Source: Escherichia phage HermannAdler_Bas98. Taken from it: a stretch of 64,000 nucleotides of DNA. Location of the stretch: the sequence record PQ850608.1; one strand, written 5' to 3'. Below, piece after piece: positions 2,585 through 62,554 of the stretch. Position 1 is the first letter of the stretch; the number at the start of each line of letters is the position of its first letter. The position numbers and the translations under genes are program-made. Under the pieces are notes generated by a model. That model saw only the letters and a list, made by a program, of their open reading frames with translations, was not told the DNA's origin and did no database searches.

Positions 2585-4006
2585 ATGCGAATGCAAACGG
2601 CACGCGAAATTGACAAAAATGGATTCTTGACGATTATGGGTTGTCCAATTTCGTCATTTGGCATTTTTGATTATTCTGCTGGTCAAGTCGGTCTTGATGG
2701 TGATCCGAATCGCATCGTAAAAGTCTATCGCCCTGAGTCAGCGGTGAAAGACCCCGAAGCGATAGATTCATTCAAAAATATCCCTTTCATCGACAATCAC
2801 GAAATGCTTTCTGGATTTGAAGGTGATGAGGATAACACAGCACCCGAAGAGTATGGAGTTGATGGCGTTCTGACTGGCAATGTTTATTATGACAAGCCAT
2901 GGATGCGCGGCGACCTTAAAGTGTTTAGCCGTCGTCTGAAGAAGGCCATTGATTCTGGAAAGGTTGACTTGTCTTTGGGCTATGACTGTGAATTCATCAT
3001 ACAGTCTGGAGAGTTTGACGGGCAGCCGTATGAAGTGGTGCAGACAACTCTTCGCGGCAACCACATTGCTCTCGTGGACGTTGGTCGAGTACCAGGTGCA
3101 CGGGTGCTGGATGGTCGTTGCTTTGACCATCTTTGTTTGACGACTGTAACACCATCCAACGAGGATTTAGACATGCCAAAACCGTTAAAAGGTAAAGCGC
3201 GTGATAATGCTGTTGAACAGCTGAAATCACTGATCCCTGCGCTCGAACAATTTCTGAACGAAGAGAGTACTGAAGCTGCTCATCAGGACGAAGTTGAAGT
3301 GAAAGCAGAAGAGAAGGACTCAACCGAAAATCGTGAAGAAGTAATGGTTGATCCAGAAGTCAAGGCAGAAGCAGAAGAAACCCCAGAAGGTGAAGAGAAG
3401 TTTGAAGTTGAAACTGAATCTCACGCTGGCGGCGAACTTCCGCAATTGATCAGCCAAATCGAAGCACTTATTGCAAAACTGAAAGGTGGCGCGGTAGGTG
3501 ATGAAGAAGAAGTTGAAGCCGAAGTCAAAGACGAAGAAGAAGTTGAAGTCAAGGCTGAAGATGTATCACCTTGCGACAAAGCTGAAGATGTGGTTAGCGG
3601 CCTGCAAAACAGCAACGTAAAGGGGGCTTCGGTCGAAAAAGATGACAAACCGACAAAAGCGGCGAAAGCGTCGCCAGGTCCAGCAAAAGGGGAACACTCA
3701 ATGGCATCTGATTCAGCAGTTGCTGCTTTCTACGCTGATTCTGCTCGTAAGAATAGCCTCTACCAGCGCCTGTCTAAAGTTGTTGGTGCCTTTGATCATG
3801 CAACTATGGACTCCAAGTCCGTAGCGAAATATGGCGCTAAAAAGTTAGGCTTGAAGTGCGTTGATGGTGCTGAGTTTGACGTGGTGGATAATTATCTGCG
3901 CGGCGTTGAGCACGGTCAAAAACAGCGTGTAGTCGCAAAACAAAAGGCCGCTGCGGATTCTGCAGCAACTGACGAAGCATTTGAAGCTTGGTTGAAAGGG
4001 GAATAA
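2585..4006 (+). CDS. prohead scaffold / maturation protease-like protein
   Basis: 473 aa. The N-terminal half (LRGNHIALVDVGRVPGARV) resembles the DUF2213 phage prohead protein family. The C-terminal half is strongly acidic with EVKAE-type repeats. It lies just before the capsid gene. Confidence 0.55.
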   Translation: MRMQTAREIDKNGFLTIMGCPISSFGIFDYSAGQVGLDGDPNRIVKVYRPESAVKDPEAIDSFKNIPFIDNHEMLSGFEGDEDNTAPEEYGVDGVLTGNVYYDKPWMRGDLKVFSRRLKKAIDSGKVDLSLGYDCEFIIQSGEFDGQPYEVVQTTLRGNHIALVDVGRVPGARVLDGRCFDHLCLTTVTPSNEDLDMPKPLKGKARDNAVEQLKSLIPALEQFLNEESTEAAHQDEVEVKAEEKDSTENREEVMVDPEVKAEAEETPEGEEKFEVETESHAGGELPQLISQIEALIAKLKGGAVGDEEEVEAEVKDEEEVEVKAEDVSPCDKAEDVVSGLQNSNVKGASVEKDDKPTKAAKASPGPAKGEHSMASDSAVAAFYADSARKNSLYQRLSKVVGAFDHATMDSKSVAKYGAKKLGLKCVDGAEFDVVDNYLRGVEHGQKQRVVAKQKAAADSAATDEAFEAWLKGE

Positions 4007-4640: not shown

Positions 4641-5780
4641 ATGACTCGCATTAGCCAAACACACTCTCGCCTCCCAGCGAGCAAGGTGCGCCCTTTTGAT
4701 ATGCAATCCGTCACCGACGCGGCTGTTTCCCAGCTTGCTCGTATCGGTATTGTGTTTGATTCCGCGATTGTGCGTGATCAGATTGAGCACTTAAACCGTG
4801 CAGGCGCTTTTCGCGTAGGTGACGCCGCGTTTACTGCGCCGCAGACTACTCCGTCAATCCCGACCCCGTTGCAGTTCCTGCAGCAGTGGTTGCCTGGCTT
4901 CGTCAAAATCATGACCGCTGCTCGTAAAATCGACGAGCTGGTTGGTATTGATACTGTTGGTCAGTGGGAAGATGCAGAAATCGTTCAGGGTATCGTTGAA
5001 CCAGCTGGCACCGCAGTTGAATATGGTGATTTCACCTCTATTCCTCTGGCAAGCTGGAACGTAAACTTTGAACGTCGTTCTATCGTTCGTGGCGAAATGG
5101 GCATGGCAGTTGGTATGCTGGAAGAAGGCCGCGCGTCTGCGATGCGTCTGAACTCCGCAGAAACCAAGCGCCAGCAGGCTGCTGTATCTCTGGAAATCAT
5201 GCGTAACGCAATCGGCTTCTATGGTTGGTACAACGGGAATAACCGCACGTTCGGATTCCTGAATGATCCAAACCTGCCAGCGGCGATGACTTCCAACACC
5301 ACTTCCGGCTGGGCTACTGCGACCTTCCAACAGGTTACTGCAGACATCCGTTTGATGGTTCGTCAAATTCGTGTGAACTCTCAGGACCAGATTGATCCAG
5401 AGAAGGTTGACATGACTCTTGCGCTGCCGACTAACTCTATCGATTGGCTGTCCAACACCACTGACTTCGGTATTTCTGTACGTGACTGGATCACCCAGAC
5501 TTATCCGAAGATGAAGATCAAATCTGCACCGGAACTCAACGGCGCACTTGGCAGTGACCCGACTTTCTTGAACGTGGCATACCTGTACGCTGATCACATT
5601 GATTCCTCAATCGATGGCTCAAGCGATGATGGTTCCGTATTCAGTCAGCTGGTTCAGACCAAGTTCATGACTCTGGGCGTTGAAAAGCGTGCTAAGAGCT
5701 ATGTCGAAGACTACGCAAACGCAACAGCAGGCGTTCTGCTCAAGCGTCCTTTCGCAGTCGTCCGTATGACTGGTATTTAA
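4641..5780 (+). CDS. major capsid protein
   Basis: 379 aa following scaffold and decoration genes. Codon choice looks highly biased (ctg, cgt, ggt). A stable hairpin follows at 5806-5835. Size and position fit an HK97-fold major capsid protein. Confidence 0.7.
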
Positions 5781-5805
5781 TTGCTGTGATTACACAGTAA
5801 AACAC

Positions 5806-5835
5806 ATGGGGCGTGGTCGAAAGGCTTCGCCCCAT
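5806..5835 (+). promoter_or_regulatory. stem-loop after the major capsid gene
   Basis: ATGGGGCG ... CGCCCCAT, an 8-bp stem. No U-tract, so it is more likely an mRNA stabiliser or partial terminator. Confidence 0.45.
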
Positions 5836-5895
5836 ATCAATAGACCTCAAGGGCTGTAGGGGCTTATCTGAGGCTTATATAAATAGGACTACAAA

Positions 5896-6360
5896 ATGTC
5901 AAAATACATCGTTTCAACTATGTCTATGTCAGTTAACTACACTTTCTATACGGAAGTGAAAGAAAACCCGAATGCAAAAGCTGGTTCAGGCGCTCTTCCA
6001 AATATTCGCAAACAGATTCTAATCAAGGGCGGCGCTGGTCTTACTTCAGCAACTTCCGGCTTTGGTGAAATGGCAAAAGGCGCTGACGGTGCACCTTTGT
6101 GGACTCCTGAAGGAATCGTCACCGTTGTAAGCGATGCAGATTTTGAGCATCTGAAAGATCATCACGTGTTTAAGCAGCATCTTGAAAAAGGTTTGGTGAA
6201 AGTCGTAAATCACGACATTGTTGGCAATCACAAGGCCGTCGCTAAAGAAGTTCGCGGCATGTCAGACGACCCGTTTGCGCCTATGACGCGCGAAACTGCT
6301 GACAAGCGCATCAAGGTCAAATTGAGCGGCGACCAAGAAGATGATTTATTCCGCGTTTAA
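5896..6360 (+). CDS. hypothetical virion-module protein
   Basis: 154-aa ORF in the head module. No recognisable motif. Confidence 0.45.
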   Translation: MSKYIVSTMSMSVNYTFYTEVKENPNAKAGSGALPNIRKQILIKGGAGLTSATSGFGEMAKGADGAPLWTPEGIVTVVSDADFEHLKDHHVFKQHLEKGLVKVVNHDIVGNHKAVAKEVRGMSDDPFAPMTRETADKRIKVKLSGDQEDDLFRV

Positions 6361-6374
6361 ATAAGGTGAATGCC

Positions 6375-6830
6375 ATGTCATTAGATTACGAAAAGTTCAG
6401 AATTAAATTTCCACAGTTTGCTGATCAGGTCAAATTCCCTGACGCAACACTTCAAGTATTCTATGACATGGCATGTGAATTTATTGAATCACAAGACAGT
6501 CCTTGTCGTGTTTTAAATGGCAGTAAATTGGAGCTGGCATTGGAATATATGACGGCTCATCTTTTATGCATAGCCGCAGACCAACAAGTGTCTGTGTCTT
6601 CTGGTGACGGAGTTGAACAAGGCGGCTTCGTGACTGGCGCAACAATTGGTGACATCACAGTGAACAAAGTCGCGCCGCCTGCGAGTGATGGCTGGGAATA
6701 CTGGCTATCAAGCACTCCATATGGCATGGCGCTGTGGGCGCTTCTTCAAGCACTGGCCGTTGGCGGCTTGTCATTCGGCGGTCTTCCAGAGCGTGAGGGA
6801 TTTCGTAAAATTGGTGGGGTGTTCTGGTGA
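6375..6830 (+). CDS. head-tail connector / head completion protein (DUF4054-like)
   Basis: N-terminus MSLDYEKFRIKFPQFAD resembles gp6-type connector proteins. Start may be ATG 6375 or GTG 6366. Confidence 0.4.
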   Translation: MSLDYEKFRIKFPQFADQVKFPDATLQVFYDMACEFIESQDSPCRVLNGSKLELALEYMTAHLLCIAADQQVSVSSGDGVEQGGFVTGATIGDITVNKVAPPASDGWEYWLSSTPYGMALWALLQALAVGGLSFGGLPEREGFRKIGGVFW

Positions 6831-7213
6831 GGATTCCTGGCGTAAACTTATATCGAGTTGCGACAAAGGTTATCGGTCGCCAACCGATTCAATATTACAT
6901 GTACAAGGGGCGCACCCTTGATAAGATGCGCAACTATGCCACTACATATGAAGAACCAATCACCTTACTTGCTTCGGTGCAGGCTGTACTTCGAAACCAA
7001 TACGTTGAGCTTGGCTTAGAGCTTCAAAAGAACTATGTCAAAATCTGGGTGGACAAAGACGTTGTTGACCTTGACCGCGACGCTTCCGGCGACTATTTTG
7101 TGTTTGGTGGCAAAACGTACAAGATGGAAGATGAAACGACATGGTTTGACCAAGATGGTTGGACGTCTTGCCTTGCCGTGGAAGTAAAACAAAGCTTTCC
7201 AGTGTCTACTTGA
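6827..7213 (+). CDS. hypothetical head-tail joining protein
   Basis: 128 aa. GTGA start/stop overlap with the upstream gene. Assigned by position only. Confidence 0.4.
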   Translation: MRIPGVNLYRVATKVIGRQPIQYYMYKGRTLDKMRNYATTYEEPITLLASVQAVLRNQYVELGLELQKNYVKIWVDKDVVDLDRDASGDYFVFGGKTYKMEDETTWFDQDGWTSCLAVEVKQSFPVST

Positions 7214-7220
7214 GGTGTAT

Positions 7221-7796
7221 ATGACAGATGTCGACCTGATTGACATGCTGGCAACGCGAATTGAAGAAGGTCTGGCGGCGTATAGTCGTGCAGACCTTTC
7301 TGCTGTTCCGGTCCAGAAAAAATACCAACCGACTCAACAGGGCATTCCGACTGGTGATCAGATTTGGTTTAACCTTTTATTCTCAGTCCCATTCGGTTGG
7401 TCAATGAGAAAGAATGAATTTGTCAATGATGAATCTCAATTCGTTAATGGCAAATTTAAAGATATTGAAGATCAGATATATGCAACACGTTTTCAAATTA
7501 GCGGCTTATTTCCAGAAGTTCCTGGCAATCCAGAAAAGCCTACGGCTAATGACGTTTTGACTTATTTAGCAAGATTCATAACCCACAAGGCTAATTTGAG
7601 GGATTGGTTTAAAAGGCATCAAGCTTCAGTATATAGAGTCGACATGAACAACAATGAAAAGTTCTATGACGACATGTCTCAGTTTGAATCGTTTCCTTCT
7701 TTTGATTTGGTAATCCTTCACAGAAACGCAATTTCAATTGACACGCCTGCTGTTGCAAGAGCTGTTAATAACGATTTAGGCGATATTCCGGTGTGA
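7221..7796 (+). CDS. hypothetical head-tail joining protein
   Basis: ATG 7221 lies 5 nt after a TGAGG SD. The track start GTG 7215 is less likely. Confidence 0.4.
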   Translation: MTDVDLIDMLATRIEEGLAAYSRADLSAVPVQKKYQPTQQGIPTGDQIWFNLLFSVPFGWSMRKNEFVNDESQFVNGKFKDIEDQIYATRFQISGLFPEVPGNPEKPTANDVLTYLARFITHKANLRDWFKRHQASVYRVDMNNNEKFYDDMSQFESFPSFDLVILHRNAISIDTPAVARAVNNDLGDIPV

Positions 7797-36198: not shown

Positions 36199-37074
36199 CT
36201 ATTTATTGAAATTAATATTATGGGTGTTAACAAGACGTTCACACATGGCGCTATAAACACCATCGTCGTGTATTGAGTCTTCGTGCTTCAGGCCGCTGAT
36301 TGCGAAGCGTGTAAGCTTGACAATCTTAAGCTCGAACAGATGCCACATGTGGTAGTCTTCCGGTGTCTTCAAAGTTACGCCATTAGGGAACAACACCTGC
36401 ATAACCTGACCTACCATCACAGCGTTATCGCCATAAACGGCATTGCGCTCACGGAAGGTCGCGGCCATCGCATCAAGAATATCAGCAGCGGTTGCTGGGG
36501 CTTGTTGTTCAACTTCAACAAGTTTAGTCTCTTCTTTCCCTGTTGCACTTGGATCAACTGCTAATTGTTGCACCACTTCACCTGCCTTGCAAAGATTAAA
36601 TGTAAAGGCGATTTTATTTTGCGCCATGGAATTATAGTGCAAAGCTTCTTCTTGCATCCGCGCGAGTACGTCTTGTCGGTCGTCGAATACATTGATGATT
36701 CGATAATCGCCGTGCCGCAAAGCGTGCGATAGCCATGCAGATTTCATAATAGTTGATGGACGTTTGTCGCCATAGTCTCTCATCTTGATTGTAAATTCAT
36801 CAAAAGGGAAAACATTGTCCAGACGTTCAAAAGTCACTTGTCTGTATTTTTCTGGCCTTGCAGTCCAATATTCAACCGCCTCACCGCGAAGAGATGCCGA
36901 CTCTACTGCTGATGCAATGTGAGGATAGAACTGATCATAACCAATACCGCTGTGATAGTCATCATAGTCTGACAACGGACCTGCCACCTTGATGCGGTCT
37001 AAGCGCCAACGGTCATCAAACAGCGTTCCGTCAAGGTCGAATACGTTTAAGATTTCGCTGTTTTTAATGCTCAT
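36199..37074 (-). CDS. HAD-family phosphatase fused to an all-alpha NTP-pyrophosphohydrolase-like domain
   Basis: N-terminal half has HAD motif I VFDLDGTLF and motif IV NVFDDRQDV. C-terminal half (FRERNAVYGDN ... KIVKLTRF ... HEDSIHDDGVYSAM) has the pattern of phage MazG-like/DUF1599-type domains. Confidence 0.55.
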   Translation of the reverse strand: MSIKNSEILNVFDLDGTLFDDRWRLDRIKVAGPLSDYDDYHSGIGYDQFYPHIASAVESASLRGEAVEYWTARPEKYRQVTFERLDNVFPFDEFTIKMRDYGDKRPSTIMKSAWLSHALRHGDYRIINVFDDRQDVLARMQEEALHYNSMAQNKIAFTFNLCKAGEVVQQLAVDPSATGKEETKLVEVEQQAPATAADILDAMAATFRERNAVYGDNAVMVGQVMQVLFPNGVTLKTPEDYHMWHLFELKIVKLTRFAISGLKHEDSIHDDGVYSAMCERLVNTHNINFNK

Positions 37075-54040: not shown

Positions 54041-54151
54041 GCCTGTGTAATGGGAGGCTTTTGTGGTTATTTACGATTCAAGGCTGTAATTTAAGAGAGC
54101 GAAAATATTATAATAATTTATCAAGATTATTGCATATTGTGGCAATCAACG

Positions 54152-54782
54152 TTTATACGTATTTATGACAGTTTAATCCACTAAATAATACGGATAGAAC
54201 AGTGAGGAAAATACAGCGGTGTATTTTAGTGTAAATATTGAATCAAAAATAAATAATTATGGTGCTATTATATACGCAGATTGTTTGTAATTTATAGGAT
54301 ATTTTATCGTGGAGTATTGGCTAACGGTGCGTTAGCCGTGGGTCTTGGTGCTTGTGGTGTTGATGCTCAGAATTTTAATAATGTTTTTAGTTTTAGTAAT
54401 CGTAGTCAATGATGATACGTATAAGAAAATGAGAGTCACCCCTTCACAGGATATTGTACCGTGGCCCTGTGGTGCGCCGCGCCTGGGATTGCTGGTATAC
54501 ACTGGTGCTATTTTGCCGCGAAGGCAGTCATTCATACGTATCATGACGTATCATTGGGCTATTGATTTATAAGGAAAAATACGCTGATACGGATGATACG
54601 GGTGCAAACATAATATATATAGAATTCCAGAAAATTAATTAACTCCATTTTGAATTAATTTAAATTAATTTTTTTCTACATCCTCATACTTATACTAAAC
54701 TTATATTCATACGTATCATCCGTAAGATATAAGTAAAAACAAGGACTTGCGGCAATACGGATGATACGTCATGATACGCTTC
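54152..54782. repeat. iteron/AT-rich element, copy 2, with outlying half-sites
   Basis: ATACGTATCATGACGTATCAT at 54533-54554, GATACGGATGATACGG at 54586-54602, an A/T core at 54605-54677, CATACGTATCATCCGT at 54708-54724, ATACGGATGATACGTCATGATACG at 54755-54778. Outliers are TTTATACGTATTTATGAC at 54152-54169 and AATACGGATA at 54187-54196. Confidence 0.8.
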
Positions 54783-54943
54783 GACCAGCCAGCAGCGGCT
54801 AAGTCATTGATTTGCATAGCAAGCGGCGAAAGGGATGGATTTCTTTTATACGTATCAAACAGTACACCACGCACCACGGTCCGCAATCCTATTTGCAATA
54901 TGATTTGTGTACGTTTATAGCCATAATGAACATCAATCTGCAC

Positions 54944-54972
54944 TTGAATATAATGTCCATCCATTGTATAAT
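54944..54972 (+). promoter_or_regulatory. sigma70-type promoter upstream of the TerS-like gene
   Basis: TTGAAT, 17-bp spacer, TATAAT. The predicted start site lies just before the first ATTTGCACTAT pair. Confidence 0.5.
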
Positions 54973-54992
54973 TCACACTATTAATTTGCACT

Positions 54993-55481
54993 ATGGGATT
55001 TTGCACTATGAGTCAAGATTATGTAGCGATGCCTGAAGACTTTGAAGACCCGCGATTCGCAGAGCACAATCAGGCTTTATTCGATGAGTTCATTGACCTT
55101 GTTATTCAGGGTCATGACATGCGCGCAGCTTTTGCACTAGTATTTGGAATGGAAGTTGCAACGGATAACTACACTGGCCAGCGAATCCTTTGCACGCAAC
55201 GCAATCCATACTACAAGATGCGCTTCAAAAAGCGTATGGAAGAGATGCCACTCAAGGATTTGTGGAGCGTAAAAGGTGCAATTCACAATTTGGTCAAGCT
55301 TGTGCGTGATCCAGAAGTCGCGGCGTCAGCCAAGCTTAATGCTATTCGTGAACTGAATATCATCTACGGCATCACGATGATTGATGAAAACGGCAATAGT
55401 AAAATGGGCCGTTCTATGGACGATTTCTACAAGGATTTTGGAGAGGCTGCCAAAGAAGGAGAGCAATTCTCCCGCCACTAG
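54993..55481 (+). CDS. small-terminase-like protein (tentative)
   Basis: HDMRAAFALVFGM ... QRNPYYKMRFKKRMEE ... DLWSVKGAIHNLVKLVRD ... AKLNAIRELNIIYGI has the HTH plus oligomerisation-helix pattern of TerS proteins. The start may instead be ATG 55008. No adjacent large terminase. Confidence 0.4.
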   Translation: MGFCTMSQDYVAMPEDFEDPRFAEHNQALFDEFIDLVIQGHDMRAAFALVFGMEVATDNYTGQRILCTQRNPYYKMRFKKRMEEMPLKDLWSVKGAIHNLVKLVRDPEVAASAKLNAIRELNIIYGITMIDENGNSKMGRSMDDFYKDFGEAAKEGEQFSRH

Positions 55482-55500
55482 CCAATTTGCACTATAAAAC

Positions 55501-55534
55501 GGCCCTAGAACACATGTTCTCCACTTCTAGGGCC
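55501..55534. terminator. 10-bp-stem hairpin (minus-strand terminator, possibly bidirectional)
   Basis: GGCCCTAGAA, 14-nt loop, TTCTAGGGCC. On the minus strand it is followed by GUUUUAUAG. Confidence 0.5.
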
Positions 55535-55595
55535 ATCGGTAATACGACGGGGAAGGTCGCACCCATAAACGCGTTAGAAAGTGTATTATTATAAG

Positions 55596-55859
55596 TCATC
55601 TTTTAGTCGCTTTACGTAACAATTTACGACCTTCAACCGTCCAATCGAACGACTCCACCAGCAGATTCGCACTATAACCTAAGACGATGCGCCCTTTCTC
55701 GTTATCGACCCGCCAACAAGTCTCGAATAGCATTCGATTTGCACTATTAACTATTGCCGCAACGCGCGTAGGGTAAGCGCAATTTGCACTATGGTCGTAA
55801 AGGGATAAGGTGCGACCACTTCCGATGGACAATGTAGCGATGAGAATAAGCGTATTCAT
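55596..55859 (-). CDS. hypothetical protein with hydrophobic N-terminus
   Basis: 87 aa starting MNTLILIATLSIGSG. Carries three copies of the ATTTGCACTAT motif on the opposite strand, each read as SAN. Confidence 0.4.
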   Translation of the reverse strand: MNTLILIATLSIGSGRTLSLYDHSANCAYPTRVAAIVNSANRMLFETCWRVDNEKGRIVLGYSANLLVESFDWTVEGRKLLRKATKR

Positions 55860-55880
55860 AAGCCACCAATTTGCACTATG

Positions 55881-55902
55881 AAAAGCGACCCCGAAGGGCC
55901 GC
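55881..55902 (-). terminator. intrinsic terminator after 55910-56536
   Basis: Minus strand: GCGGCCC-UUCG-GGGUCGC (one G-U pair) followed by UUUUCAU. Confidence 0.6.
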
Positions 55903-55909
55903 CATTCGA

Positions 55910-56536
55910 TTAGATAATCTGGAAGGTGTAGGACTTGTTGCCGAACTCGAAGTTCAAGCGTCCAGCTTCTTTAAGCTTCATGCGGAAGCGAATGTGCTTG
56001 CTATCCGGTAATCCCAGCGCGGCGAAGGCTACGCGGACCGATTTGAACTCGCCTACACCCTCGACCATAACGCCGTTACGGGTGAGACGCTTTTGCGCCA
56101 CTTCCTTATTATCCCAACTTTTTGCAATACCTTCGCTATTCGAACGGCGATGGGAAGGAGTTCCATTTTGCACTACGCAATTTGCACTATCGTTTAAGCC
56201 GCTCTTAACGAAGGCTTCATACTCTTCATCGCTCATCGCGTCGAGTTCTTCCTGGGTCGGCTCAGCCTTTTTAACGACCGCACGCGCCTTATGCGTTTTT
56301 ACATCACTGGACACTTCCTCACGCGGCTTCGCGTCGGGAATGGGCGATTCGTTGGACGGCTCATCGAGCGCGTTTAAGGACTCGATTAACGCGATTACGC
56401 GAGTCTCGGCGGTCCGGCGGTCCGCAAATTTCTTAATCGGCTTCGAACCGGAATTTGCATTATAAAATGCAACGAGGTCGGCGGTCTTAGTTGCGATAAC
56501 GTCGCCGCTAGTAGAAAAGCGATTTAAGCTAACCAT
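55910..56536 (-). CDS. hypothetical protein
   Basis: 208 aa. RBS context TAGGAGTTTATTATGG is shared with 56617-56931. CpG-rich codon usage. Confidence 0.5.
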   Translation of the reverse strand: MVSLNRFSTSGDVIATKTADLVAFYNANSGSKPIKKFADRRTAETRVIALIESLNALDEPSNESPIPDAKPREEVSSDVKTHKARAVVKKAEPTQEELDAMSDEEYEAFVKSGLNDSANCVVQNGTPSHRRSNSEGIAKSWDNKEVAQKRLTRNGVMVEGVGEFKSVRVAFAALGLPDSKHIRFRMKLKEAGRLNFEFGNKSYTFQII

Positions 56537-56616
56537 AATAAACTCCTATTTGTTAGGGCGCTAGGCGCGAAAGAATTTTATTAAAGCGCCGCGCACGACG
56601 CTCTAAAAATCCTCTC

Positions 56617-56931
56617 TTACTCTTCGTCGTCTTCGATTAATTCGAGGGCGAAGGCGTAAGCTTTGCTATCGTAATTAACTAAAACGGCGAGTTCGAACTC
56701 GTTAATAAACGCCGTTTTACCGCATAAATTTAATTCCGCATCGACTTCGAAGAATCCGTTTTCGTCGCGCTCTAAGCGAGAAGCAGCGAGTTGCTCGATT
56801 ACCGTCGCGTCGTTAATTTCTTCGCCTAAGCGAACGCCGGAGAATTTCGCGAGAATTTCGCCGTAAGTAAGCGTAACGCCCTGGACTTCGGCGGCGGCGT
56901 TTTCGAGGGTAAAGCGGGTAACGATAGCCAT
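56617..56931 (-). CDS. small acidic protein (104 aa)
   Basis: Ends LIEDDEE. Driven by the minus-strand copy of the promoter-leader cassette. SD is AGGAG. Confidence 0.55.
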   Translation of the reverse strand: MAIVTRFTLENAAAEVQGVTLTYGEILAKFSGVRLGEEINDATVIEQLAASRLERDENGFFEVDAELNLCGKTAFINEFELAVLVNYDSKAYAFALELIEDDEE

Positions 56932-56955
56932 AATAAACTCCTAGTTGGGAGAGGC

Positions 56956-57038
56956 GTTAACGACCTATTCGTTAACTCATCCCGTCCCGATATGAGTACA
57001 TTATAATATAGTGTAGAAAAAAGTAAAGCACTTTTTCG
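56956..57038 (-). promoter_or_regulatory. promoter-leader cassette P3 (minus strand)
   Basis: Minus strand: AAAAAGTGCTTTACT, 16-bp spacer, TATAAT, then CATATCGGGACGGGATGAG, then hairpin GTTAACG-AATAGGT-CGTTAAC (56976-56956), then AACTAGGAG SD. Confidence 0.65.
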
Positions 57039-57071
57039 ATAAAAATGCGATAAATTATTTTATCTTTTTTC

Positions 57072-57117
57072 TTTACTTCTTCGTACACTCGCGTATACTT
57101 GTTTATATCGAGACGGG
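57072..57117 (+). promoter_or_regulatory. promoter-leader cassette P1
   Basis: TTTACT (57072-57077), 16-bp spacer, TATACT (57094-57099), then TATATCGAGACGGG (57104-57117). Confidence 0.65.
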
Positions 57118-57155
57118 CGATGGCCCTTTCTTCTACTAGCATCGGGAGCTTTATT

Positions 57156-57458
57156 ATGACTACTTTAATCTCTTCCATCCTTACTTACGACGAAGACCGC
57201 TTAACCGTTCGCTCTCTTATCGCCGCCGTTAACGCGGAACTAGAATCTAGCGCCATTAAGGTCCGCGCGGTCGCCTTCATCGGCCTTTCCTTCGACGATA
57301 TGAAGTATGCCGAACGTAGCGCCATCCGCTTCGCGAAGACCGACGACGAAGCCGTTACCCTTATCGAGACGGTTACGCCGCGCGGCGAAGCGTTAATTAT
57401 CGTCGAGTATATCGACGTAGAAGGCGATAAATCTTATAAACATTTTATCGCAGAATAA
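57156..57458 (+). CDS. small acidic protein (100 aa)
   Basis: GGGAG SD before ATG 57156. Downstream of cassette copy P1. The track start 57099 lies inside the promoter. Confidence 0.55.
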   Translation: MTTLISSILTYDEDRLTVRSLIAAVNAELESSAIKVRAVAFIGLSFDDMKYAERSAIRFAKTDDEAVTLIETVTPRGEALIIVEYIDVEGDKSYKHFIAE

Positions 57459-57459
57459 C

Positions 57460-57542
57460 GAAAAAAGTGCTTTACTTCTTCGTACACTAAGACTATAATG
57501 TTTTATATCGAGAGGGGATGAGGTAGCGAATAGGTCACTACC
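57460..57542 (+). promoter_or_regulatory. promoter-leader cassette P2
   Basis: AAAAAAGTGCTTTACT, 17-bp spacer, TATAAT (57494-57499), then TATATCGAGAGGGGATGAG, then hairpin GGTAGCG-AATAGGT-CACTACC (57522-57542), then AACTAGGAG SD. Confidence 0.65.
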
Positions 57543-57566
57543 CTCCCGACTAACTAGGAGAATATT

Positions 57567-57857
57567 ATGATTACTTTAGCCGCTATCCGTTCCGCTCGCG
57601 TCGAAACTTCCGAAAACTCTAACGTATTTGGCGAAAAACTTAAAAACGTTTATCTCTTTAACGTAGATGCGACTATCGAGGAGCTTCACAGTCCTATCGA
57701 TTTTAGCGAATTTACGGAACTCGAAGAGGAAGATATTTCTACCTTCCGCGTTACTATCGAAGGCAAGGTTTATTTTGCTACGGAGTTCGGCGGCGAATAT
57801 CTCGCGGTATCCGAAGGCGAAGGCCGTTACTCTTTCTTTAAAATCGTTTCCTTATAA
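57567..57857 (+). CDS. small acidic protein (96 aa)
   Basis: TAGGAG SD. Downstream of cassette copy P2. Followed by terminator 57877-57902. Confidence 0.55.
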   Translation: MITLAAIRSARVETSENSNVFGEKLKNVYLFNVDATIEELHSPIDFSEFTELEEEDISTFRVTIEGKVYFATEFGGEYLAVSEGEGRYSFFKIVSL

Positions 57858-57876
57858 TACCCTTCCGTTACTAATA

Positions 57877-57902
57877 GGCCGCGCTTAGTCGCGGCTTTTC
57901 TT
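57877..57902 (+). terminator. intrinsic terminator
   Basis: GCCGCG-cttagt-CGCGGC followed by TTTTCTT. Confidence 0.65.
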
Positions 57903-58021
57903 CGTCCCTATCTCGATGCGCTCCTACGCGAAAACTCCTTTATCCTTCCCTTCGTCGTCGCATAATCTTCTTCGAGATGCGTCTTAGTTCGCATAACAGG
58001 TATTACGTTAAATGGAGAACA

Positions 58022-58102
58022 TCGCGTAAGTCCTTGTTTTATATAGACACCTATATCGGACCGTTAGGGCGGGTCGCGTAAGTCGTTGTTTTATAAAGGC
58101 AC
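58022..58102 (+). repeat. 29-bp direct repeat pair
   Basis: TCGCGTAAGTCCTTGTTTTATATAGACAC (58022-58050) against TCGCGTAAGTCGTTGTTTTATAAAGGCAC (58074-58102). Confidence 0.8.
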
Positions 58103-58220
58103 AAAACTTTCCCTTCGTTCCGAACTAAAACGAGAAATATGCCGACCCTTCGCCCGAAAATAGTACGTATGCGAAATTACATTCATCTCGAATAATCCCT
58201 CCCGATATTATCCTACACGC

Positions 58221-58283
58221 AATCATTCGCTTTCGAATCATTATGCTTCATATTATTATGCGTCGAATCATTCGCTTTCGAAT
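58221..58283 (+). repeat. 18-bp direct repeat pair, internally palindromic
   Basis: AATCATTCGCTTTCGAAT at 58221-58238 and 58266-58283. Each contains ATTCG-CTTT-CGAAT. Confidence 0.8.
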
Positions 58284-58498
58284 TGTAACGCTGGAAACTG
58301 TAACGTCGATTGATTATTGCGTTCGTGTGGTTTTTATGGCATGGGTCTTTTGGTGCGTTTTGCTACTTGATGGAATTTGCGGTACACTAATCAAAATACG
58401 ACACATTTGGTCCACTAACTTTTCAAAGAAAAAGTCCTAGACAGTACCGTACTATTTTGTACCCACAGGAAATTTGCAGTACACTCCTGAGCGGCAGG

Positions 58499-60220: not shown

Positions 60221-62554
60221 TTATTTCGCTGCTTTCAGCGCGGCTATCTCTGCCTCTAGTGACTCGACCTTTTTCATCAACTCCTGCACCACGTGCATCG
60301 TATCCAAAAGCATAGGTGTGGTGTCAAGTTGCTTTTGCTCGACCTCTACACCTTCACTCGGATAAAACTTCACCGTTTTTACATACAACGGGTCGATTAT
60401 CTCTGCTTTTTGAGCGATGATGCCCCTTCTTACCCTTTCCTTTTCATCATTGTTGTAGATGAACGTTACATACTCCAGCGATGAAAGGTTGCTCCATGCT
60501 TTTTCAACCGTTCCTGGTTGTATGTCATGCTTCAAATTCTCATCAGAGATGGCATTCTTCTGAAGAGTGTAAAAGCTATCTGATCCAAGAATTGACACAG
60601 AGAAAAATACATCATGAGAGTTAGGCTGTATGTTCATCCTTGTCTGGTACTGAGCGTTGTCATCACCAACAACAAGCCAAGTCCCCTGCGCAAAACTTCC
60701 GTTATTATTATGGATCAAACCGTGATGAAGAGTGGTTGCATAGCCTGTATCTACTTGTTGACCGCCGCTGAAAAGGCTGTTGAATGCATAGTTTTGACCT
60801 ATTGACTGTCTCACCGTTGCATAAGTGCCGATTCTTGTGCCAGTCTCGCTCCAAGACATGAGACTTCCATATCTCGCAGCAAATCTGTCACTGCTAAGGG
60901 TGCCCGCATCGTCAAATGCAAGGTCTTTAGTCACCCCTTTTGTTTTATTGTACACAGACAGGATTGCATAATAAAACCCATCCATGTATGCATCACACCG
61001 CAATCCAGCATCCGCTTCAACAACAGCACCAATTTTGTATTGTGCTCTTACCTGCCCTGAAGATGCCTTGACTCCTGAACCTGGGCGAACAGCATCAGCA
61101 TTGATTACTTGCCATTGCGTATTCGCGGCAACAAATCCACCCGATGCACGAATCACCCAAACGCCGACAAAGTTGCGCGGAACGATTTCCGCTGCTGAAC
61201 GACCATAAACAGGACTGCAGCGAGAAGCGTCAAAGTTTGTTTGTATGAATCTTGACCCAGAGCCTGCTGCCGCAGGAGAGTCACCCGAAGTTATTGACTG
61301 AAAAGCACCATTAGTTGCCACCTGGCTTGGTGCAGAAGCCAGCGTCACCATTGTGTGCGGCGCTGCGTAAGTTATATTTGGCGCGCCTGATTCAGACACG
61401 ATACCGTTGGCTGATGAATTACCGCCATCACCTCTTCCAAACAAGGCCTGTATGGAACCAGTTTGAACACCGTTCCTGTCAGGCACTCGAAACGTCGTCG
61501 TTCCGTTACCCAGAGAATACTTGCCGCGTTTCGCTGGGTCCGCTAACCAATCTGCATCTGCAATAGGTGAAAGCATTTGCGCATACGCCCAAAGCTCAGG
61601 CCAATCCGCTCGATTCAGCAATTGCCCATCAGCAACGACTTCATACGGTTGAATATATGCACGACTGTCGCGTAAGTGGAAGTCGCCGACGCCATAGTTC
61701 ATAACACCGTTCATGCTTGGGCCAACGGTGCCTGTGTTTACTAAGTTCTCAACCCAACGCTTGGTCGCGGCATCATAATCGTTAACTGGGTCACCAGCCA
61801 GTGGCGTTGAACCTTGTGGGCGAATATTTAACCATGCTTGCGCATTATCTGCTGAGCCTGTGCCGCCCATGGAAGTTGGAACGATGTCTTGATCAGCAAC
61901 AGTCCCGAATCCAAAAGCAGACTTCATCCCTTGGATTGTCGTTTGGCCTGTGCCGCCATTAGCTACTGGGATTATGCTTGACTCGGAATAAATCATGACC
62001 CAAGGAGACCATGATTGAGTTTCCATGGTGAATCTTCTTTGATATGTATTGTTGGAATCGAATGTCGTATATCGCTGAATGCAACTTTCTGATATAACGC
62101 CTGTCTGCAATACTTCTAATACTCCTGCTTGCTGCGCAGGGTAATTCAAAGCTGAAGATGCACCACCGTTTGAATTTTGGAAGTACTGCCCAAACCAAGT
62201 CCCTGTAAGCGCATTAAGATTCATGCCGGATGGAACAATCCCAAAGTTTCGGACAGTACCCGTCAAAGTCGCGGCAGTTGTTCGAATGGAAAGCATATCG
62301 CCAGCCTCCCATGCACGCGCTGCAGTTCCTTCCTGTGCACGCTGTACTGTCAGCACGTTTCCAACCACGGCTGTTACTGTGACGATTTCGAATTGGAGGC
62401 CTGTTGCAGCGTCGACGATTGTCGCCACTACACGCTCATTTGCACTCAAGGTCGGAAAGCCCGACCCTGAGCGAATTGTGATTGTGGTGTCTGAAGTCGT
62501 CATTGGTTGGGCAAGCGCGACCTCAAAGTTGTTTTTGAATATTAGCCTTGGCAT
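60221..62554 (-). CDS. tail fibre/spike protein with C-terminal intramolecular chaperone (peptidase S74-type) domain
   Basis: 777 aa. N-terminus TTITIRSGSGFPTL ... VQRAQEGTAARAW is typical of fibre anchor domains. Also PVANGGTGQTT and MGGTGSA. The C-terminus has SDENLKHDI (Ser-Lys dyad context) and a terminal coiled coil. Confidence 0.7.
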   Translation of the reverse strand: MPRLIFKNNFEVALAQPMTTSDTTITIRSGSGFPTLSANERVVATIVDAATGLQFEIVTVTAVVGNVLTVQRAQEGTAARAWEAGDMLSIRTTAATLTGTVRNFGIVPSGMNLNALTGTWFGQYFQNSNGGASSALNYPAQQAGVLEVLQTGVISESCIQRYTTFDSNNTYQRRFTMETQSWSPWVMIYSESSIIPVANGGTGQTTIQGMKSAFGFGTVADQDIVPTSMGGTGSADNAQAWLNIRPQGSTPLAGDPVNDYDAATKRWVENLVNTGTVGPSMNGVMNYGVGDFHLRDSRAYIQPYEVVADGQLLNRADWPELWAYAQMLSPIADADWLADPAKRGKYSLGNGTTTFRVPDRNGVQTGSIQALFGRGDGGNSSANGIVSESGAPNITYAAPHTMVTLASAPSQVATNGAFQSITSGDSPAAAGSGSRFIQTNFDASRCSPVYGRSAAEIVPRNFVGVWVIRASGGFVAANTQWQVINADAVRPGSGVKASSGQVRAQYKIGAVVEADAGLRCDAYMDGFYYAILSVYNKTKGVTKDLAFDDAGTLSSDRFAARYGSLMSWSETGTRIGTYATVRQSIGQNYAFNSLFSGGQQVDTGYATTLHHGLIHNNNGSFAQGTWLVVGDDNAQYQTRMNIQPNSHDVFFSVSILGSDSFYTLQKNAISDENLKHDIQPGTVEKAWSNLSSLEYVTFIYNNDEKERVRRGIIAQKAEIIDPLYVKTVKFYPSEGVEVEQKQLDTTPMLLDTMHVVQELMKKVESLEAEIAALKAAK

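Follow-up and report, generated by a model that had tools for sequence, protein, structure and literature searches.

The left half of the direct terminal repeat (DTR) of this E. coli myovirus, a member of Wifcevirus, carries a probable cis-acting DNA signal that is under selection at the level of DNA and is kept in related phages. The signal is the 11-mer ATTTGCACTAT (variant form ATAGTGCAAAT; consensus W-T-T-Y-G-C-A-C-T-A-Y), hereinafter M, of which about 9–13 independent copies are maintained on one strand in the terminus-proximal 1–1.5 kb of the DTR. A literature search with the motif string returned nothing relevant to M. We propose that the array probably serves as a directional signal, either in DNA packaging or in protecting the genome end, and the specific reading that we favor, to which we assign a probability of roughly 35%, is a directional packaging signal read by the terminase via its small subunit, TerS.

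The motif array and its genomic setting

In the window (the whole 64-kb stretch of DNA that was analysed), the exact 11-mer occurs six times, always on the + strand, against 0.04 occurrences expected, and none of 100 shuffles reaches six. With one mismatch allowed, both strands of the window yield 11 matches against 2.0 expected, of which ten are on the + strand within 54891–56463, and the single − strand match is at 36634. Likewise, the core T[TC]GCACTA, in which GCACTA is invariant, is found ten times on the + strand within 54986–56182 and once on the − strand elsewhere in the 64 kb. The enrichment and strand clustering noted by the first-pass annotation thus hold when counted genome-wide against shuffles. 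All six of its exact copies are present on the + strand, as are its four near-copies (54998/54999, 55665, 56165/56166, and 56453); however, its list was incomplete, having overlooked the copies at 54891 and 55130 and a weak one at 56120. The 9/11 match that it mentioned at 62438 exists, the frequency of such matches being at chance level. Avoidance of M outside the array is not significant in an underpowered comparison (1 observed vs ~3.5 expected, p ~0.12–0.16). The features of the region are as follows:

54647..58350, no strand: DTR of 3.7 kb, with the left physical terminus at 54647
54891..54901, +: weak M copy ATTTGCAATAT, not kept in other Wifcevirus genomes
54927..54972, +: two overlapping predicted sigma-70-like promoters upstream of the TerS gene (TGAACA-16-TATAAT and TTGAAT-17-TATAAT; 10/12 matches each)
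54984..54994, +: exact M, the first of two tandem copies within the TerS leader, invariant in 13 genomes
54999..55009, +: M copy TTTTGCACTAT, second of the tandem pair, its 3' bases being the first two of the TerS start codon
55008..55481, +: TerS gene (E = 7e-34 to PDB 7uxe; Mansfield annotation)
55130..55140, +: M copy TTTTGCACTAG in the TerS gene, encoding AFALV, invariant in 13 genomes
55485..55495, +: exact M, intergenic, beside the U-tract of a terminator on the minus strand
55501..55534, −: intrinsic terminator hairpin of gp003 (-26.8 kcal/mol on the minus-strand RNA, then UUUU; WFH annotation)
55596..55859, −: gp003, 87 aa, with a signal-peptide-like N-terminus; contains three M copies and the single Chi
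55655..55662, −: sole canonical Chi, GCTGGTGG, in the DTR, 2 nt from the M copy at 55665
55665..55675, +: M copy ATTCGCACTAT; most relatives have ATTTGCACTAT here
55737..55747, +: exact M, the one copy whose codon position (NSAN) is homologous in Kyle and PA1
55782..55792, +: exact M
55869..55879, +: exact M, intergenic, beside the U-tract of a terminator on the minus strand
55885..55902, −: intrinsic terminator hairpin of gp004 (-18.0 kcal/mol on the minus-strand RNA, then UUUU; WFH annotation)
55910..56536, −: gp004, 208 aa, with no assigned function; a neighbor of TerS kept family-wide
56120..56130, +: weak M-like copy TTTTGCAATAC
56166..56176, +: M copy TTTTGCACTAC, encoding VVQN, in a hypervariable linker of gp004; missing from ECML-117 and RCIP0319
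56180..56190, +: exact M, 14 nt after the preceding copy
56453..56463, +: weak M copy ATTTGCATTAT, encoding NAN, which varies among relatives
58375..58399, +: conserved element ATTTGCGGTACACTAATCAAAATAC, distinct from M, 25 nt beyond the right DTR boundary

The left end of the DTR is set by the records of Mansfield and WFC, both of which begin at 54647, and its right end by the PhageTerm DTR end of Mansfield (3673) and the end of the WFH record, both of which map to 58350; a terminal repeat of ~3.7 kb has been published (PMC6563267, PMC6753283). The array lies at +245 to +1815 nt from the left terminus, with its first copy at ~245 nt and strong copies from 337 nt onwards. The earlier proposal, that a recognition array with strand polarity lies close to an end of the genome, is upheld, and the array is now placed inside the DTR. 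Its flank toward the terminus is AT-rich, and short palindromes sit at the left DTR boundary. The distance from the terminus to the start of the TerS gene is near-constant in three genera (361, 357, and 388 nt), which suggests a functional coupling of terminus and terS.

The gene first described as TerS-like codes for a true small terminase subunit, its PDB match 7uxe being the TerS decamer of phage E217. The tandem M copies said to overlap its start sit in the 5' leader downstream of both predicted promoters, and cover only the first two bases of the start codon. The product of gp003 looks secreted and is found too in Serratia phages without M, and gp004 gave only insignificant matches against PDB. 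The genes converge across the array. The GC-rich hairpins reported after both copies of the extended form CCAATTTGCACTAT do exist; they are, however, the terminators of these minus-strand genes, as they are less stable on the + strand RNA (-17.2 and -10.2 kcal/mol, respectively) and have their U-runs on the minus-strand RNA, where the supposed 5-nt spacer is the U-tract.

Selection on the DNA and distribution among relatives

Seven of the 13 M copies lie within ORFs, six of these being antisense to the host gene, and together the copies occupy all three reading frames, genes of both strands, and intergenic DNA. Their spacings are irregular (14–355 nt, over a spread of 0.9–1.5 kb), and helical phasing is absent in three lineages (Rayleigh test, 10–11 bp; R 0.04–0.15, p > 0.5). 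The use of all frames and strands, this absence of phasing, and the positional turnover of the copies between relatives indicate that selection acts on the DNA. Silent and intergenic variation is accordingly lower inside strong M copies than outside (4/47 vs 94/417, p = 0.024), and M copies use rare codons (AGT 10%, AAT 33%). The Ser-Ala-Asn reading claimed for the copies within the minus-strand genes applies to four of the six, and fails for those at 56166, which uses another frame, and 56453. A protein-level Ser-Ala-Asn repeat is ruled out by the three frames, the unrelated peptides, the rare codons, and the lack of SAN enrichment in the proteome. The suggestion of a centromere-like site finds no support either, the copies being neither tandem nor regularly spaced, nor helically phased.

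The core, strand, place, and copy number of M are matched in the Pantoea phages Kyle and PA1 and in the metagenomic L153, which form with Wifcevirus one monophyletic TerS clade to which M is confined. Conservation in relatives and constraint at silent sites, both proposed earlier as checks on the motif, are therefore found. Strand polarity is complete in each lineage (13/13, 11/11, 10/10, and 6/6 on one strand), and in Kyle all nine copies fall within 580–1476 of the 69.5-kb genome. The tandem pair in the TerS leader is specific to Wifcevirus, with Chi sites found there in Kyle, PA1, and L153. Throughout the M clade, TerS is the sole common DTR-encoded protein besides the family-wide gp004.

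Serratia phages, whose hosts belong to the same order, lack M, which favors a phage-encoded reader. Neither M nor a comparable de novo polar array was found beside TerS in L154, PS44/Pbunavirus, or XcP1, nor was an array of the Pseudomonas-type Chi GCTGGCGC in Pbunavirus PS44; the TerS zone has only a Chi cluster in MyoSmar and Hera, and GC-rich one-strand words in Maja and L168. The TerS identities are 48% for L154, 43% for Kyle, 41% for Pbunavirus, and 36% for the DTR-forming Serratia phage MyoSmar. Among the matches listed by two scans of viral contigs for a gapped M pattern, unrelated phages showed no M array; with one exception, the hits outside the M clade were tandem repeats or coding repeats rich in Ala/Ser/Thr. 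The exception is a family of phi29-like 13.8-kb contigs with the reverse-complement M word in their terminal inverted repeats, which we judge coincidental, as these are gut Firmicutes phages picked by the search pattern itself. A corresponding scan of bacterial genomes also returned no M arrays among the matches listed; an 811-nt contig labeled 'Xanthomonas pisi' is a Wifcevirus contaminant.

One of the first suggestions was the promoter of a phage-specific transcription factor; given this organization, it is extremely improbable that such a factor, or a phage-specific RNA polymerase, uses M as all or part of its promoter. The ending ...CACTAT loosely recalls the 3' half of SP6/T7-type promoters, and the minus-strand NATAGT resembles a -10 hexamer. 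However, the genes converge and yet the copies share a single strand; most copies are inside ORFs or antisense to these, and their positions turn over between relatives. Furthermore, the annotation of Mansfield, the most fully annotated relative, lists neither a phage RNA polymerase nor a sigma factor. The earlier statement that M is not itself a sigma-70 promoter stands, as the sigma-70-like promoters are at the expected positions and none coincides with M. The mapped promoters of the related phage 14-1 are sigma-70-like or have a CTGGG motif, not M (PMC10914365).

An alternative that we consider unlikely is that M is an array of sites bound by a phage protein that is peculiar to the clade and has no part in packaging, viz., iterons or single-strand initiation sites of an end-proximal origin, or operator or silencing sites for early DTR genes. 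Direct repeats in one orientation, as seen in M, are typical of iterons, the DNA beside the array at the terminus is AT-rich, and the phage encodes RepB-like and primase-helicase proteins; however, iterons are regular, clustered repeats in non-coding DNA beside an unwinding element, and most M copies are irregularly dispersed within ORFs over 1–1.5 kb. The tandem pair just after the predicted promoters has an operator-like position, but it is confined to Wifcevirus, M is asymmetric, unlike typical dimeric operators, and the region also contains a palindromic family, distinct from M, that already has the look of the operator set. As for the protein itself, the window phage and Kyle alone share several uncharacterised proteins, one of which (215 aa) is encoded directly after the primase-helicase gene. 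About six real proteins are common to these two phages and missing from MyoSmar and PS44, none with a match in Pfam, NCBIfam, PHROGs, or PDB, and the lineage-restricted proteins show no detectable DNA-binding domain.

Virion DNA with single-strand nicks is seen in T5 and in the Pseudomonas phages tf and LUZ24, and M might by the same token mark strand-specific sites nicked by a phage nickase. The confinement of M to one strand, its asymmetry, and its length, which approximates that of known nick consensus sequences, agree with this; nevertheless, M matches the tf/LUZ24 consensus TACT/RTGMC weakly, about 12 nicks clustered in 1.5 kb of each repeat would be without precedent or rationale, and the literature covered on this genus and its relatives makes no mention of nicks, making this reading very unlikely. 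A DnaA box or a T5-type injection-stop site is ruled out by sequence and architecture, with M departing from TTWTNCACA at its own invariant bases.

Terminase and Chi-like readings

Several observations point to the terminase, acting through TerS, as the most likely reader of M: the array is near the terminus, brackets the TerS gene with copies in its leader, inside it, and downstream of it, is restricted to a TerS clade, is strictly polar, and is under DNA-level selection. In the proposed mechanism, the array would mark the TerS-proximal genome end and give that end its direction, with packaging proceeding from the left terminus to the right, as the analogy with lambda, SPP1, and P22 suggests, and with the array presumably required in cis. 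It might be a pac/cosB-like loading zone for the terminase beside the left cut site; alternatively, it might be a polar signal of the cosQ type, which the translocating motor would read on entering the terminal repeat and preparing the final cut. In either case, many copies would make recognition near-certain even if single copies were often missed.

Other observations count against the terminase. The known TerS sites are compact (under ~300 bp) and often helically phased or bent, whereas the M array is irregular and extends over 0.9–1.5 kb, and close homologs of TerS, namely those of L154, Pbunavirus, and MyoSmar, occur without a comparable array. Ectopic M is not significantly avoided, and other elements are present at the DTR boundaries. 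One of these is the AATTTGC[G/A]GTACACT pair (58375 and 58472) that had been noted as related to M: the pair is real but separate from M, since it lacks the GCACTA core and lies just outside the right DTR end. Its Kyle counterpart, CAGTACACTAATCAGAAT, is 31–48 nt outside the DTR end of that phage, and either this right-boundary element or the left-boundary palindromes could be the true cleavage signals. Finally, the homologous TerS of E217 showed no appreciable DNA binding in vitro (PMC9611059).

The sole Chi of the DTR is conserved in all Wifcevirus loci examined and has the orientation that is active on RecBCD coming in from the left terminus (for the orientation rule, see PMC12315714); together with three one-mismatch variants in the window, it is on the array strand, with none on the opposite strand. 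The acidic gp005, found in Wifcevirus alone, is a candidate RecBCD inhibitor whose gain may have accompanied the loss of Chi in this genus. In Kyle, PA1, and L153, M is interleaved with, and nested inside, 7–9 true Chi sites of the same strand, which are oriented for activity on RecBCD entering at that terminus, and a Chi cluster occupies the corresponding zone in the Serratia relatives. Such clusters in the DTRs of Kyle, PA1, and the Serratia phages suggest that the repeats recombine by a route that depends on RecBCD. These co-oriented clusters of true Chi in the same zone bear out one part of the initial Chi-like suggestion; M itself, however, differs from GCTGGTGG and is not the E. coli Chi.

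The main rival, somewhat less probable than the terminase reading, is that M is a Chi-like polar signal on one strand, read by a helicase-nuclease or recombination machine and distinct from the wild-type RecBCD-Chi interaction. Such a reader, of the host or the phage, would enter at or track from the TerS-proximal end, and the effect would be that less of the linear genome is degraded as it enters or replicates, or that recombination of the terminal repeats is promoted, yielding concatemers. The anatomy of M is that of Chi, with an asymmetric high-information core in dispersed, irregular, and unphased copies near a DNA end that turn over and are indifferent to frame, gene strand, and exact position. 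It is present in some related lineages and missing from others, a pattern typical of accessory signals, and terminal clustering of Chi is documented in the phages LLS and MD8 (PMC12315714). Against this, M bears no resemblance to GCTGGTGG, the form of Chi in enteric hosts, and tracks the phage lineage rather than the host: the M clade is monophyletic and the Serratia phages have Chi without M, whereas the true Chi clusters do follow the Enterobacterales hosts, Serratia phages included. Furthermore, to our knowledge, E. coli has no other sequence-regulated end-processing enzyme, the lineage-restricted proteins offered no candidate reader, and the matches listed from unrelated phages and bacterial genomes include no M array. 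Rather doubtful, in turn, is the more specific version in which M is a second kind of Chi-like word for a novel helicase-nuclease or recombination machine, phage-encoded or of Escherichia/Pantoea, that would be used with or instead of Chi in the terminal repeat for protecting the genome end and driving repeat-mediated concatemer formation.

Implications and comparison with known systems

Wifcevirus comprises fast-growing coliphages that have lately entered the BASEL model collection, and the related Pbunavirus phages are widely used in phage therapy (PMC11990801). Recoding, rebooting, or minimising such genomes must preserve a signal hidden in the coding DNA of the DTR. If the terminase reads M, this TerS family, whose solved member showed no in vitro DNA binding, would have its first defined packaging signal; if M is Chi-like, it would reveal a new sequence-regulated pathway of end processing. 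With the co-oriented Chi clusters in the DTRs of Kyle, PA1, and the Serratia phages, the 'terminal Chi cluster', a recent finding in lambdoid phages, is extended to virulent DTR myoviruses.

Among the terminase sites, lambda cosB and cosQ and P1 pac resemble M in being repeated, short, asymmetric words with polarity, located by terS and the cleavage site, with cosQ being read directionally by the translocating terminase. The same features recur in SPP1 pacL/pacR and P22 pac (PMC9611059). All these sites differ from M in covering tens to ~300 bp with 1–7 elements that are often phased or bent, whereas M has 9–13 unphased copies that extend over 0.9–1.5 kb, lie mostly in other genes, and turn over. 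The FtsK KOPS, GGGNAGGG, and the SpoIIIE SRS are likewise short asymmetric words that direct DNA-tracking motors, for which copy number and polarity matter rather than exact position; however, these occur genome-wide with a skew, and M is limited to ~1.5 kb and is essentially absent elsewhere.

The terminal Chi clusters of the lambdoid phage LLS and the Pseudomonas phage MD8 (Zheng et al., 2025, PMC12315714) resemble M in that an asymmetric word is found in many copies near one end, nearly all of them on one strand and irregularly placed in coding DNA. The parallel extends to the genuine Chi clusters that share the zone and strand of M in Kyle, PA1, and L153, but these are in the DTRs of virulent myoviruses, and M is not GCTGGTGG and follows the phage lineage. 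The injection-stop region of T5 (Davison, preprint 10.1101/866236) is comparable as a conserved, cis-acting, repeat-rich zone in the long DTR of a virulent coliphage. That region, however, is untranslated, lies at the inner end of the repeat, and contains inverted repeats, palindromes, and paired DnaA boxes, whereas M consists of one asymmetric word that lies largely within coding DNA and in the half of the repeat next to the terminus.

A polar array in the terminal repeat

The phage is a Wifcevirus (92-97% identity to WFC, WFH, ECML-117, Mansfield, and Bas99-101), an E. coli/Shigella myovirus with a genome of ~68 kb; phages of this kind carry a ~3.7-kb direct terminal repeat (DTR; PMC6563267; PMC6753283). 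Since window position 54647 is the first base of both the Mansfield and WFC records, and the Mansfield DTR ends, like the WFH record, at 58350, we place the DTR at 54647-58350. The short word M (consensus W-T-T-Y-G-C-A-C-T-A-Y) occupies its left half, at +245 to +1815 nt counted from the left physical end, amid the following features:

54927-54972: two predicted sigma-70-like promoters upstream of TerS
55008-55481: small terminase subunit gene (terS; E = 7e-34 to the TerS decamer of Pseudomonas phage E217, PDB 7uxe)
55910-56536, minus strand: gp004, 208 aa, PHROG 4730
56617-56931, minus strand: gp005, 104 aa, strongly acidic (22 D/E vs 7 K/R)
~57000-57100: predicted divergent promoter pair serving the leftward operon gp005-gp004-gp003 and rightward genes

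On sequence grounds, 55008-55481 encodes a true small terminase subunit, and a tandem M pair (54984/54999) sits in the leader of this gene. Across the 64 kb of the window there are six exact matches to the 11-mer ATTTGCACTAT (0.04 expected), always on the + strand (54984-56190). Allowing one mismatch yields 11 matches (2.0 expected), of which 10 are + strand copies within 54891-56463 and the other is a - strand match at 36634; likewise, the 8-mer core T[TC]GCACTA has 10 + strand copies within 54986-56182 and a single - strand copy elsewhere. A relaxed scan of the window recovers 13 copies, all on one strand (two-sided binomial p = 0.0002). The core is asymmetric, the flanks hold no information content, and the irregularly spaced copies show no helical phasing. 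The copy coordinates of the first-pass annotation are correct, but it overlooked 54891, 55130, and the weak copy 56120. Its reading of every genic copy as Ser-Ala-Asn holds for four of six and fails for the other two, and the GC-rich hairpins it had tied to 'extended' copies are actually minus-strand intrinsic terminators, the spacer being their U-tract. A promoter role for M was rejected: no copy coincides with the sigma-70-like promoters, and most copies lie in or antisense to ORFs.

Lineage distribution and selection on DNA

TerS homologs were found in 358 phage records, and a neighbor-joining tree of TerS unites the four M-bearing lineages (Wifcevirus, Kyle, PA1, and the metagenomic L153) in one clade.

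M copies and Chi sites (Chi, the RecBCD-regulating site of enteric bacteria; CCACCAGC is its complement), with TerS identity to the window
Window (E. coli): M 10 (8-mer core) or 13 (relaxed); Chi, 1 exact and 3 one-mismatch
Kyle (Pantoea): TerS 43%; M 9 (core) or 11 (relaxed), all at 580-1476; Chi (CCACCAGC) 9 at 255-1972
PA1 (Pantoea): TerS 40%; M 10; Chi 7
L153 (metagenome): TerS 52%; M 5-6; Chi 7
MyoSmar, Hera (Serratia): TerS 36%; M 0; Chi cluster, 4 exact in MyoSmar
PS44/Pbunavirus, XcP1, Maja, L154, and others: TerS 31-48%; M 0; Chi none

The Kyle record has an exact 3,603-bp DTR; its core copies are all on the TerS strand, and the remainder of the 69.5-kb genome has none on either strand. 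M is under selection as DNA, not as protein. Copies are found in genes of both strands and in intergenic DNA, and yield SAN, NAN, VVQ, AFAL, LALQ, SHY, or IVR in differing frames; only the NSAN copy (window 55737, Kyle 1077, PA1 6739) occupies a homologous position. In the SAN copies, Ser is encoded by AGT and Asn by AAT, which account for 10% of Ser codons and 33% of Asn codons, respectively, and the tripeptide occurs three times in the 87-aa gp003 vs twice in 10,425 residues elsewhere. Copies 56166/56180 fall in a hypervariable gp004 linker that is replaced in two Wifcevirus genomes. The eight strong copies hardly vary among 13 Wifcevirus genomes, with 4/47 silent and intergenic positions variable inside them vs 94/417 outside (p = 0.024). 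Given these frame, turnover, invariance, flank, and spacing results, the maintained property of M is its number, zone, and polarity, not its position.

gp004 adjoins TerS in Wifcevirus, Kyle, PA1, L153, L154, MyoSmar, Hera, XcP1, and Pbunavirus, and its C-terminal segment (...EFKSVRxAFxALxLPDSKHIRFR...) is highly conserved. An 811-nt contig of 'Xanthomonas pisi DSM 18956' (NZ_JPLE01000260.1, Contig_265; 96% identity to window 54737-55547) is a Wifcevirus fragment, most likely a contaminant of a bacterial assembly. The record of Pseudomonas phage PS44 (NC_028939.1) contains two copies of the TerS region, at 602-1171 and at 60998-61567. The latter is internal and not at the record end, which looks like an assembly or permutation artifact and not a terminal repeat. 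Five IMG/VR contigs of ~13.8 kb (L082, L201, L214, L228, L234), phi29-like podovirus genomes with terminal inverted repeats, carry GTGGACGAT(T/A)GTGCAAA four times in the first ~95 nt; this includes the reverse complement of the M core, a resemblance that is probably coincidental because relatives infect gut Firmicutes.

Candidate readers and boundary elements

The M array is best regarded as a polar signal that acts in cis at the genome end or in packaging. We found no description of the motif in the papers searched, including those on Wifcevirus and on Mansfield. The restriction of M to one clade favors a phage-encoded reader. We tentatively propose, with a probability of roughly 0.35, that it is a terminase signal, which TerS or the terminase would read near the terminus. 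Consistent with this, the array is near both the terminus and terS, the terminus and the TerS start are a conserved distance apart (361 nt in Wifcevirus, 357 nt in Kyle, 388 nt in MyoSmar), and TerS is the only plausible DNA-handling DTR protein common to the whole M clade. Against it, the array is dispersed without phasing, some phages have a homologous TerS without the array, and E217 TerS showed no appreciable DNA binding in vitro (PMC9611059). An iteron, initiation-site, or operator array is unlikely, and nick sites are very improbable. Among lineage-restricted phage proteins, no candidate reader was found.

Further elements lie near the DTR boundaries. A palindromic family GATGATACGTATCATC/CGTATCATGACGTATCAT (window 54146-54860) fills a ~1-kb non-coding stretch across the left boundary; as it recurs in a second intergenic region (2200-2460), it resembles a set of operators for a dimeric regulator. 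Two nested pairs of perfect inverted repeats (54537-54554/54761-54778 and 54588-54600/54712-54724) center ~10 nt from the terminus. A short AT-rich palindrome contains or adjoins the left terminus both here (54647-54664, TTTGAATTAATTTAAA) and at the Kyle junction (unique-region end plus 1-30; ATAAATTCACT...AGTGAATTTAT). The element AATTY-N4-GTACACTRATCARAAT (window 58375-58399 and 58472-58487; Kyle 3626-3651), conserved in Wifcevirus and Kyle 25-50 nt outside the right boundary, has look-alikes in PA1 and L153 at the corresponding distance and may help to specify terminus formation; it bears a loose resemblance to M with its halves parted by 4-5 nt. In Wifcevirus and Kyle, CAGTACAC is also present ~200 nt inward of the left terminus.

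Chi sites in the terminal repeats

CCACCAGC on the top strand is active for RecBCD coming from the left end (PMC12315714). One-strand canonical clusters of 4-9 sites were observed as follows:

Kyle, 255-1972
PA1, 5861-7433
L153, 1625-3322
MyoSmar, 6653-6993
Hera, ~5737-6950

These lie within DTRs of virulent Pantoea/Serratia myoviruses, oriented for RecBCD from the TerS-proximal terminus. The rest of the Kyle genome has four sites on the same strand and two on the opposite one; MyoSmar has four within a 340-bp stretch of its DTR and one elsewhere. The Chi zone encloses the M zone. Only 2 nt separate the single exact Chi of the window (55655-55662) from an M copy; this Chi and the three one-mismatch variants are all on the array strand (0 opposite). 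The anatomy of M and these accompanying sites favor M being itself a Chi-like signal, a reading somewhat less probable than the terminase signal; it would require a reader beyond those known, and M tracks phage lineage, not host.

Other one-strand GC-rich words occur near TerS, with no opposite-strand copies: GCGCGGCT in the TerS relative L168 (9-2552, n = 6) and GCGCGGCGA in Burkholderia phage Maja (5742-8615, n = 7, one mismatch allowed). These may be host-specific Chi-like sequences. The acidic gp005, found in Wifcevirus only among the genomes compared, is speculatively a candidate DNA mimic or RecBCD inhibitor; such activity could, equally speculatively, explain the loss of most Wifcevirus Chi sites.

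Recombination between P1 terminal repeats requires RecA and RecBCD (PMC12315714), and we infer that Chi clusters in the DTR promote survival that depends on RecBCD and the formation of concatemers through the repeats. Terminal Chi clustering was already known in the lambdoid phage LLS (PMC12315714); its occurrence in the DTRs of virulent myoviruses widens it beyond lambdoid phages.
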